Part shown: one piece after another, positions 1,166 through 52,945 of the stretch
Layout: every line of letters starts with the position of its first letter
Numbering within the stretch: position 1 is the first letter of the stretch
Source: Octopus vulgaris
Lineage: Eukaryota
Length of the DNA: 64,000 nucleotides
Assembly: GCA_951406725.2 (NCBI GenBank)
Contig: OX597816.1
Location: forward strand, 58,528,001 to 58,592,000
Reading direction: 5' to 3'
Made by a program: the position numbers and the translations under genes
The notes under the pieces: generated by a model
What the model was told of the DNA's origin: nothing
Databases searched by the model: none
What the model saw: the letters and a program-made list of their open reading frames with translations, nothing else

Positions 1166-1204
<39 letters not shown>

Positions 1205-1206
<2 letters not shown>

Positions 1207-2013
1207 CAATAATAATTCTCTAAATGAGATATAGACAGTAACTGCTCCATAACATAAGGGACTAAAGCCATCTGAATATGGCTAGGGACAGGGCAGGGTG
1301 GTGGGGGTGTTACTGTTGAATTTAGCCCCAGGCGAACATCAACGTCGCCAGATAGGCTTGACACCATCACGGCGTCCTCTATCCTGCAAAGGGAGATAAT
1401 TCCCCGATGAAGCGGAAACCACACACGGACCTAGGTTTCAAGGTGTTTGCCTATTATCAACGTATGGTAGGCACCCACTTCCTCGACGAACTACTCACTC
1501 TGCAGGATATTTATATAGATTTTCAAGCAAAATACATTTGCTGATTTCGAAAATCTGTTCGACAGCAATAATAATTCTCTAAATGAGATATAGACAGTAA
1601 CTGCTCCATAACATAAGGGACTAAAGCCATCTGAATATGGCTAGGGACAGGGCAGGGTGGTGGGGGTGTTACTGTTGCATTTAGCCCCAGGCGAACATCA
1701 ACGTCGCCAGATAGGCTTGACACCATCACGGCGTCCTCTATCCTGCAAAGGGAGATAATTCCCCGATGAAGCGGAAACCACACACGGACCTAGGTTTCAA
1801 GGTGTTTGTCTATTATCAACGTATGGTAGGCACCCGCTTCCTCGACGAACCACTCACTCTGCAGGATATTTATATAGATTTTCAAGCAAAATACATTTGC
1901 TGATTTCGAAAATCTGTTCGACAGCAATAATAATTCTCTAAATGAGATATAGACAGTAACTGCTCCATAACATAAGGGACTAAAGCCATCTGAATATGGC
2001 TAGGGACAGGGCA
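1205..2013 (+). repeat. Tandem array of 2.25 copies of a highly structured 359-bp unit
   Basis: Units start at 1205, 1564 and 1923; four substitutions seen between units 1 and 2; begins directly after (TA)n. Confidence 0.95.
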
Positions 2014-2032
2014 TGAACAATGGTATGAACAA

Positions 2033-2547
2033 TGGTATGAACACAAGCCAAAGGGAGTAATGGAAAATGACCATTACAATATGCTCTGGGATTTTAAAAT
2101 ACAGTGCGAGACGGTGCGAGATTTTAAAATATAGAGGCGAGACGGCCAGATATCGTGATCATCCATTAAGATGAAAAAGAAGCAAAGATAATAGATGTTG
2201 CAATACTAAGCGATTCGAGGGTGAAATGTAAGGAAACAGAAAAGTGTGAGAATTACCAGCCATAGTGGGACGAAATGGGAAAGCTATGGGGCATAAGGAA
2301 AGTAATGGTGATACCAGTGGTAATTGGAGCATTAGGAACATTTTCTAAGAGTTTTGAAAAACATATTAAGAATATTGGAGCTGCTGTAAGGCTCGAGGTG
2401 ATCCAGAAGATCGCATTGTTTGGTACAGCTCGCATTCTAAGGAGAGTATTGTCTCTGAGTCACTACTTGAAACCTTTGGTGATTTGTTGTTGCCTGCTTT
2501 CAAGTGAAGAACAACAGGTAATTAAGGTCTATCCGATAGTCTTTCAG
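2033..2547 (+). mobile_element. Decayed 3' end of R4/Dong-like RLE non-LTR retrotransposon
   Basis: WYEHKPKGVMEND..MLWDF, RPDIV, and IPVVIGALG...IQKIALFGTARILRRVL; followed by (AAT/AAC)n. Confidence 0.85.
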
Positions 2548-19562: not shown

Positions 19563-19642
19563 CAAAATGTAACTTCGTGAATCGTTGGTGATTTTTTTTT
19601 ATACTCCATGTTCCTTTTCTTTTGGTATTTCCTCTGTTTCCT

Positions 19643-19677
19643 GTTTCTGAAGAAGAGCTTTGCTCGAAACGTAAAAC
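19643..19677 (+). ncRNA. Minimal hammerhead motif
   Basis: GTTT-CTGAAGAA-GAGC ttt GCTC-GAAA-CG-TA-AAAC. Confidence 0.7.
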
Positions 19678-19756
19678 CATCTCTCTTTCCTTCCATTACA
19701 TGTACCACGTCCTCACGTTGTTGTTTTTTCTTTTTGTTCTTCGTTTTTTTGGGATT

Positions 19757-51458: not shown

Positions 51459-51526
<68 letters not shown>

Positions 51527-51824
51527 CAAAATGGGACAAGAACGCAAAACATCCAAATAGACGATACAAAAAACACGGACGGGTCATTTGAAGCCTTTAA
51601 TCTTCAGTCAAGAACCGGATCATCCTCGCAATTTCGGCTGATTAATCTTGAGATTGCTCTAATCTGGCCAGCCCCAATGAAAAACTAAGCTAAGAGCATT
51701 AGATTCCTTGGGAAAAGGATCGAATGTATACGAAACAAGGACAGAAAAACGGACGATGTTACTCGAATATAAATACAAAAAAAAATAATACGAATACAAA
51801 TACATAAAAAAACACAACAATAAC

Positions 51825-51980
<156 letters not shown>

Positions 51981-51984
51981 AAAA

Positions 51985-52263
51985 GCTGATTGCTAACATA
52001 ATGTGACTGTCCTATTCATTAGCCCCAGGAAACGTCGTTTCTGGCTGGCTATTCGACACAATATCTGTGTCCTTATATTTTCGAATAGGGAGTTCAGCAC
52101 TCCCATCCAGCGCAAAACAACATCTGTGGACTAGTTTCTGAGTTATTGCTCTTTATCAACAAAGAGTATCTGCTCGGCTAGATGGCGTTGCTGAACTCAC
52201 CGTTCGAATATATAGTTTTCAAAGTGACACGCAGTCACTGATCTAAAAATTGAACAAATAGCC
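51985..52263 (+). ncRNA. Multi-domain structured RNA element, structural homolog of the 359-bp unit
   Basis: Nested stems (GGCTATT/AATAGCC, GACAC/GTGTC, TTCGAAT/GTTCGAA, GAGTTCAGCA/TGCTGAACTC, TGCTCTTT/AAAGAGTA, AGTGAC/GTCACT), with G-U pairs on the + strand. Confidence 0.7.
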
Positions 52264-52739
52264 GTTGTGGTTAGCCGACATCTGGAACCGAGTTAAGAGG
52301 AGACATGATAACCGCCAGGAAAATATATCCCTTTAAACTCATTTTTGGAAACATGTATATACTCATATATATACAGAGTATGAAGGTTTAGTTCACAGGT
52401 GATCTAAACAATTAGGTACGCTAAGTAGGTGTTGTAACGAATTCTATTATTGAACGTTGGTATGCTCGCGTCTTTTTCTTGAGATGTCTACTATATAAGG
52501 ACTTTAACCCACATGGATATACGCAGGATTTCACCTAAAGACTTACGCTCATGGATCTTCGCAGGATTGCACCTAAGGACTCATGCTCTGGTTTCTATAA
52601 CTTCGGAAAGTTGAGCTATGAAATTTAATGCCTCTTTTTTCTTCTCTCTTTCCATCTCCTTATTCTTTTACTCTCTACCTCTATGTTGTCATCTTGTTGC
52701 TGCATACCATTCTCATTATCCATATTTTCCCCCAATTTG

Positions 52740-52793
52740 TCTCTGATGACGGAATATGCCTTACTCGAGGATATCCAAGAAACAGCTGTAAGA
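52740..52793 (+). ncRNA. Type I hammerhead motif in PLE 3' terminal region
   Basis: TCT-CTGATGA-CGGAATAT..ATATCCA-AGAAA-CAGCTG-TA-AGA; palindromic ACAGCTGT; the region ends in (TA)n. Confidence 0.75.
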
Positions 52794-52875
52794 TTTTCAA
52801 TTTCTTCCTGTAATAATATTGTATACGACTTGAGATGTTTGCCTTGCCCTAATGCTTGATGTCCTGTTTAACAAT

Positions 52876-52945
<70 letters not shown>

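Follow-up and report, generated by a model that had tools for sequence, protein, structure and literature searches.

Two diverged elements (E1 and E2) in a 64,000-nucleotide stretch of the Octopus vulgaris genome (GenBank assembly GCA_951406725.2, contig OX597816.1, positions 58,528,001 to 58,592,000; hereafter the window) very probably represent two subfamilies of a single protein-free repeat, about 355 bases long, whose minus strand bears a type I hammerhead motif; they are likely non-LTR retrozymes mobilised by Penelope-like elements (PLEs). The class is already known, as metazoan non-LTR retrozymes; for the family and the covarying scaffold outside its ribozyme, the literature found has no description. 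An original prediction, made from the letters of the window, had described E1 and E2 as a candidate undescribed structured-RNA family of the plus strand.

Hammerhead motif

Read on the minus strand, E1 and E2 both contain, in this order, UAC, a 6-nt helix I strand, UUGAUAA, helix II, GAAAC, a palindrome, GUC and the helix I partner (Table 1). The core of a type I hammerhead was found in both, comprising the 3-8 pair, which is U3-A8 in the place of C3-G8, G5 and A6, A9, G12, A13 and A14, the A15.1-U16.1 pair and H17, together with a canonical 6-bp helix I with internal loop and a short palindromic helix III. The original prediction had recognised no known fold; the centre of the minus strand reads as a type I hammerhead, and two of the motifs listed for the plus strand, GGAC(C)TAG(G)TTTC and ATCAAC, are the reverse complements of GAAAC-palindrome-GUC and of the UUGAU core.

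The G10.1-C11.1 pair at the base of helix II is absent from both elements. The first E1 copy has U.U at 10.1/11.1 followed by a 3-bp helix II; E2 has A.A at these positions, likewise followed by 3 bp, and one helix I mismatch relative to the family. Without G10.1-C11.1 and with a helix II of three pairs, the activity of E1 and E2 is therefore possibly low. In the second E1 copy, a change at 1809 destroys one helix II pair, and both copies compared in the original prediction carry helix-breaking changes; they are damaged and may be inactive. G10.1-C11.1 is present in sister subfamilies (642 pattern matches versus 0 for the control), and the same pattern gave 0 matches in viral contigs.

Exact searches of the genome returned 1,869 matches to the U3-type core (A8 or G8) versus 1 for the reversed control, and 146 to the C3-G8 core pattern versus 1 for the control. 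Across subfamilies the core 3-8 pair covaries as U-A, U-G and C-G. Several C3-G8 loci are members of the E1/E2 family; two inspected loci (L136 and L140) lie outside it. Of 224 helix III occurrences in the fetched loci, with overlapping loci counted repeatedly, 197 are perfectly palindromic. Eight different palindromes of 6 or 8 nt were seen, and the six tested gave self-duplex energies of -4.8 to -11.4 kcal/mol. A palindromic helix III is the arrangement described for dimeric hammerheads (PMC4209133, PMC7229834).

With Rfam 15, the whole window and both elements gave nothing at the gathering threshold and chance-level matches alone at E<=10, and no Rfam family was assigned. The hammerhead models probably miss E1 and E2 because their core is the variant U3-A8. 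ARAGORN reported no tRNA or tmRNA. A plus-strand hammerhead in E1 (CCGATGA...GAAAC) was rejected, being without a helix I partner and missing from E2. Likenesses to group I/II introns, twister, pistol, RNase P/MRP and IRES elements were set aside on account of an unfitting motif order.

Table 1. Positions in the window of the features assigned to E1 and E2.
Feature	Position	Strand	Details
(TA)n target adjoining RNA-sense 3' end of E1 array	1166-1204		
E1 array	1205-2013	minus	2.3 head-to-tail copies, period 359 bp, 99% matches
E1 array units	1205-1563, 1564-1922, partial 1923-2013	minus	
E1 array ends	1205 and 2013	minus	3' at fixed site 2 (1205); 5' truncation at 2013
44-nt "tail", E1 array	1205-1248	minus	end site 1 to end site 2 (1205)
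End site 1, E1 array	1249; also 1608, 1967	minus	
Scaffold 3' of predicted cut, E1 copy 1	1249-1413	minus	long-stem strands and the three features below
CAGUAAC strand, E1 copy 1 scaffold	1309-1315	minus	
CCUGGGGCUA-closed domain, E1 copy 1 scaffold	about 1322-1358	minus	
GGACAC/GUGUC hairpin, E1 copy 1 scaffold	about 1360-1376	minus	
Type I hammerhead, E1 copy 1	1414-1475	minus	core UUGAUAA 1460-1454; GAAA 1439-1436; palindrome 1429-1436
Predicted cut, E1 copy 1 hammerhead	between 1428 and 1427	minus	
Scaffold 5' of ribozyme, E1 copy 1	1476-1563	minus	includes long-stem strands
CUAUAUA stretch, E1 copy 1	1512-1518	minus	
AUCAG-hairpin-UUGAAAA, E1 copy 1	about 1520-1545	minus	
Type I hammerhead, E1 copy 2 (E1 of the original prediction)	1773-1834	minus	core 1819-1813; palindrome 1788-1795
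Predicted cut, E1 copy 2 hammerhead	between 1787 and 1786	minus	
(TA)n target at E2 3' end	51944-51976		
E2	51977-52260	minus	single 5'-truncated copy, older 353-bp sister family; 3' end at site 1
Type I hammerhead, E2	52115-52174	minus	core UUGAUAA 52159-52153; GAAA 52138-52135; palindrome 52130-52135
Predicted cut, E2 hammerhead	between 52129 and 52128	minus	

Extent of the elements in the window

The E1 first described is the second unit of a tandem array and no lone element; the two full units of this array differ at 4 of 359 positions. Within the scaffold 3' of the predicted cut, the first copy also contains a GCCA/UGGC hairpin (minus strand), and a small hairpin lies within the 44-nt tail, together with one of the two CAGUAAC/GUUACUG stem strands. 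E2 has an internal deletion of 26 alignment columns near 52010. The motifs and hairpins listed for the two elements in the original prediction are present where they had been placed, except that the first of its motif matches is out of register because this deletion conceals the register: TAACATAA of E2 is the loop of the GCCA/TGGC hairpin, whereas its E1 counterpart stands at the insertion end, about 20 nt beyond.

The G+C content of the units is 42-48%. The longest stop-to-stop frame across the E1 array spans 89 aa, and there is no internal region between repeats. At the sequence level the marks of a non-LTR retrozyme are present: a hammerhead in each unit, short tandem repeats, many copies, no coding capacity, no arrangement of LTR type and a G+C content below 50%.

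At the 5' junction of the E1 array (window 2013-2460), 2.6 copies of a 12-bp unit precede the 3'-terminal fragment of a LINE-like reading frame; this fragment ends in (AAT)n/(AAC)n.

Repeat family and covarying scaffold

Searching the octopus genome with E1 gave 1,503 first-look candidates; among the 40 scored, full-length copies were 95-100% identical. E2 gave 1,943 first-look candidates, with main matches 78-89% identical among the 40 scored. The unit measures 362 nt in the E1 family (33 distinct monomers), 353 nt in the E2 family (29 copies) and 358-359 nt in a sister subfamily. Units occur in tandem up to 5 copies. The original prediction had proposed extending the repeats towards a parent element; the tandem units measure 353-362 nt, and no parent bearing an ORF was found among eight copies of an intact PLE or at a longer hammerhead period of 1,380 bp.

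For alignment, 27 copies were hand-picked from 140 loci so as to cover about 8-10 subfamilies. Identity between cluster representatives is 49-79%, and about 49% for those of the E1 and E2 clusters; both elements are collinear with the 25 other copies. In the RNAalifold consensus, helices I and II reappear, the ribozyme sits inside a long rod, and hairpins lie at the flanks. In the resulting 72-pair structure, which was predicted from the same alignment as was used for scoring, 84.9% of cells are paired and both sides change in 49 of 72 pairs, compared with 33-44% of cells and 19-26 pairs in slid controls; as the 27 rows are moreover related, this covariation is to be read as support rather than as a significance test, and the shuffle control overstates significance. 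Both sides change in 5 of 6 pairs of helix I and 3 of 3 of helix II (94% of cells paired in each), and outside the ribozyme in 7 of 8 pairs of the basal stem and 16 of 20 of the long stem. The CAGUAAC/GUUACUG stem lies partly outside the alignment; by eye, a compensating G-rich/C-rich stem takes its place in L133.

The expanded alignment therefore bears out the shared architecture and covarying stems that had been claimed from the two window copies, and the likeness of E1 and E2 is not due to chance. These predicted pairings support selection on the RNA structure of the unit, and the family provides a natural covariation set for the whole unit, beyond the ribozyme. Remoter subfamilies were seen at L133:1405-1709, L121:1406-1691 and L173:138-440, with a canonical or near-canonical core and the domain order kept; they would be useful for a broader covariation model.

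A five-unit C3-G8 array (L143 / L125-L129; C1:20003083-20004543) consists of two alternating variants, one unit being 353 nt long. The alternation hints at a multimeric or dimer-circle template, or at later recombination.

Insertion ends and Penelope-like elements

In the fetched loci, every arm has a fixed end that meets (TA)n and a ragged opposite end; inverted insertions are fixed at both outer ends. A microsatellite was found at most 330 nt downstream on the hammerhead strand in 90 of 126 arms (some fetched twice, a few non-family), and in 74 of these 90 its distance from the cut is 160-189 or 210-229 nt. The two end sites are homologous across subfamilies, lie 44 nt apart in E1 and are both unpaired in the predicted circle. 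Both ends could be assigned to a fixed site in 15 of the 25 inverted insertions, and without exception these combine site 1 at one end with site 2 at the other; in the remaining 10 at least one end was unclassifiable. An apparent microsatellite peak at "upstream 50 nt" was discarded, being the unit's own TATATA stretch and no end. Target-site duplications of more than 4 bp are hidden because the retrozyme ends lie in (TA)n.

PLE insertions are described as comprising partial tandems, an inverted 5'-truncated copy, a one-sided tail of 30-40 bp and (TA)n targets (PMC8557442, Craig et al. 2021). By analogy, the paired end sites and (TA)n make up a Penelope-like footprint. The strict pairing of site 1 with site 2 supports the proposed, unproven role of PLEs as helpers, and the neighbourhood of (TA)n and Penelope-like elements, noted in the original prediction, was found again.

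Intact ORFs of 781 aa with RT and GIY-YIG domains occur in the genome and end at TA repeats, the RVT_1 score being slightly below the cut-off. Eight copies of one intact PLE family share no sequence with the unit and have no clear hammerhead. At L171-L178, the 781-aa RT and GIY-YIG family is young, with many near-identical copies, partial tandems and 3' internal repeats; a match that suggested homology of the unit to it, at L173, proved to be a separate flanking copy. A 1,380-bp hammerhead period at C1:94.32 Mb was considered as an autonomous parent and rejected as a local duplication with other repeat fragments. Likewise rejected was a single composite insertion of E2 and the PLE-like piece at 52262-52880, this piece being a separate two-armed repeat starting near 52353. 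In the 5' flanks of 64 arms without an inverted partner, an antisense hammerhead was matched by regular expression for E2 alone; L071 looked alike by eye.

The small two-armed repeat at window 52353-52880 gave 2,583 first-look candidates, 83-89% identical. It has a C3-G8 hammerhead-like motif near 52743 (+) and (TA)n at its end, and its inverted arm matches sequence past the 3' end of the main arm, in the manner of a tail. PLE-type hammerhead remnants stand beside (TA)n at 1040-1165, 19639-19690 and 51525-51770 (minus), that at 19639 found by regular expression and the others by eye. At L075, L077 and L141, retrozyme 5' ends are fused, by eye, to mid-ORF pieces of other LINE-like elements; these junctions are possibly template switches.

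Comparison with known systems

Metazoan non-LTR retrozymes are described as non-coding tandem repeats of 150-450 bp with a type I hammerhead and a G+C content below 50%; mussel units measure 350-390 bp, and PLEs were proposed as helpers (PMC7229834, Cervera and de la Peña 2020). The octopus family shares with them the short palindromic helix III and, with axolotl HHR_Amex2, U.U at the base of helix II (10.1/11.1), a ribozyme whose monomer cleaves weakly and whose dimer cleaves better (PMC7229834). It differs in its core, which is mostly U3-A8 where theirs is C3-G8, and in its genomic arrangement, as its copies are dispersed in short arrays, both tandem and inverted, that sit in (TA)n and end at two fixed sites. 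Its scaffold is multi-domain and covaries at 49-79% identity, whereas the published circles are described merely as highly self-paired in the parts of PMC7229834 used here, where no cephalopod appears among the retrozymes. Cleavage and circles were demonstrated for the published retrozymes (PMC7229834); for the octopus family both are predicted from sequence.

Like the hammerheads of PLE pseudo-LTRs (pLTRs), the octopus motif is of type I with a palindromic helix III suited to dimer action, and U3-A8, a covariant first seen in a PLE hammerhead, is reported in Schistosoma mansoni Cercyon elements (PMC4209133, Cervera and de la Peña 2014). Minimal pLTR hammerheads have a long helix II and a short helix I and flank an RT-EN ORF (PMC4209133), whereas the octopus units have helices of canonical size and no ORF. 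The octopus tail is 44 nt long, against 30-40 bp in PLEs (PMC8557442).

A preprint (Li, Clavereau, Pollet 2026; 10.64898/2026.07.22.740005) presents vertebrate retrozymes as non-autonomous PLE derivatives and reports cleavage of 1 of 9 tested Xenopus dimers. No mollusc was sampled in that preprint and its argument is from co-occurrence and homology; the octopus case argues from insertion ends. For the octopus unit, no pLTR homology was found in the eight copies of one PLE family that were compared.

No description of the family was found in the literature on octopus or cephalopod retrozymes and hammerheads, a search that covered papers and part of their supplements. Of the claimed novelty, the family and its scaffold stand, being without a published description found, and the class gives way to known non-LTR retrozymes. 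The result adds a cephalopod retrozyme family with a dominant U3-A8 core that Rfam misses.

Strand and alternative explanations

In target-primed reverse transcription, fixed ends correspond to RNA 3' ends. The RNA is therefore the minus strand of the window, as we infer from the fixed ends of the arms. The original prediction had called the plus strand from G-U pairs and proposed a structured RNA unrelated to known ribozymes, which we regard as hardly credible. Plus-strand folds are stable as well (mean z -3.5; alifold -68 kcal/mol), both strands show the covariation equally, and nothing in Rfam matches; yet the minus strand folds better on both measures (mean z -4.7 for 27 sequences with 12 shuffles each; consensus -76 kcal/mol). 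Over the 62 pairs predicted on both strands, the minus strand has 173 G-U cells versus 81 A-C cells, 123 to 42 outside the old E2 family and 50 to 39 inside it. Counted by themselves, the window copies yield 11 to 8, and the strand is therefore not decidable from E1 and E2 alone. Besides the fixed ends, which are minus-strand 3' ends, it is on the minus strand only that the conserved unpaired nucleotides form a hammerhead, the plus-strand look-alike of E1 being missing from E2.

Two other explanations accept the hammerhead and differ on how the unit moves. The less improbable of them, though still unlikely, is that the unit is a PLE pLTR or a short derivative of one, copied from linear multimeric transcripts with no circles and perhaps with a weak hammerhead. 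The insertion footprint is that of PLEs, units within one array can differ, Xenopus retrozymes are related to pLTRs (10.64898/2026.07.22.740005), and U3-A8 has its PLE precedent (PMC4209133); against this, no ORF-bearing parent appeared, either in the eight copies of the intact PLE family or in the 1,380-bp period, the unit length is constant at 353-362 bp across subfamilies, and the shape of the hammerhead is that of canonical retrozymes, with a 6-bp helix I and a short helix II bearing a CAAUAA-type loop, where minimal pLTRs have a long helix II. Mobilisation of a retrozyme by a restriction-like-endonuclease LINE of R4/Dong type instead of a PLE is very improbable. It would account for the LINE fragment that the E1 array adjoins at its 5' end (window about 2046-2460), which we take to be of this type. 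Such LINEs are capable of template jumping. The fragment, however, ends in (AAT)n/(AAC)n and the retrozymes mostly in (TA)n, the 64 arms lacking an inverted partner border varied sequence, and the inverted arm with one-sided tail is described for PLEs and was unseen in non-LTR target-primed reverse transcription (PMC8557442).

Proposed mobilisation

For a PLE-mobilised retrozyme, tandem copies would be transcribed by read-through or internally. Neighbouring hammerheads would then pair through their palindromes and cut as a dimer, and the released monomer would likely be ligated to a circle; RtcB circularises axolotl and mussel retrozymes in vitro (PMC7229834). The PLE RT-endonuclease would likely start copying at sites 1 and 2, primed by the two nicked strands of (TA)n, with the scaffold outside the ribozyme presumably presenting both priming sites to the enzyme, and copying of more than one unit would give tandem and inverted arms. 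Array units can differ, which counts against a template made purely of a single circle, as later mutation would then be needed.

More tentatively, and with the odds somewhat against it, the covarying scaffold may be a recognition element for the Penelope RT-endonuclease, the two single-stranded priming sites 44 nt apart flanking one strand of a conserved stem, so that one circular RNA would serve both nicked (TA)n strands as template. If so, PLE reverse transcription would have in the unit a minimal, well-defined RNA substrate, and the origin of the inverted arm and one-sided tail of PLEs would be explained. That origin becomes testable on a 360-nt RNA, and the part worth pursuing is how the conserved scaffold and the two putative priming sites might serve PLE reverse transcription as a substrate.

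Part of the unit was found in 20 of 24 listed sequencing runs under five organism labels, none recorded as RNA, the contigs giving neither strand nor circle. One 388-nt contig (X1) wraps round the 359-nt unit; a tandem would explain this as well as a circle would, and the contig was left out of the evidence.
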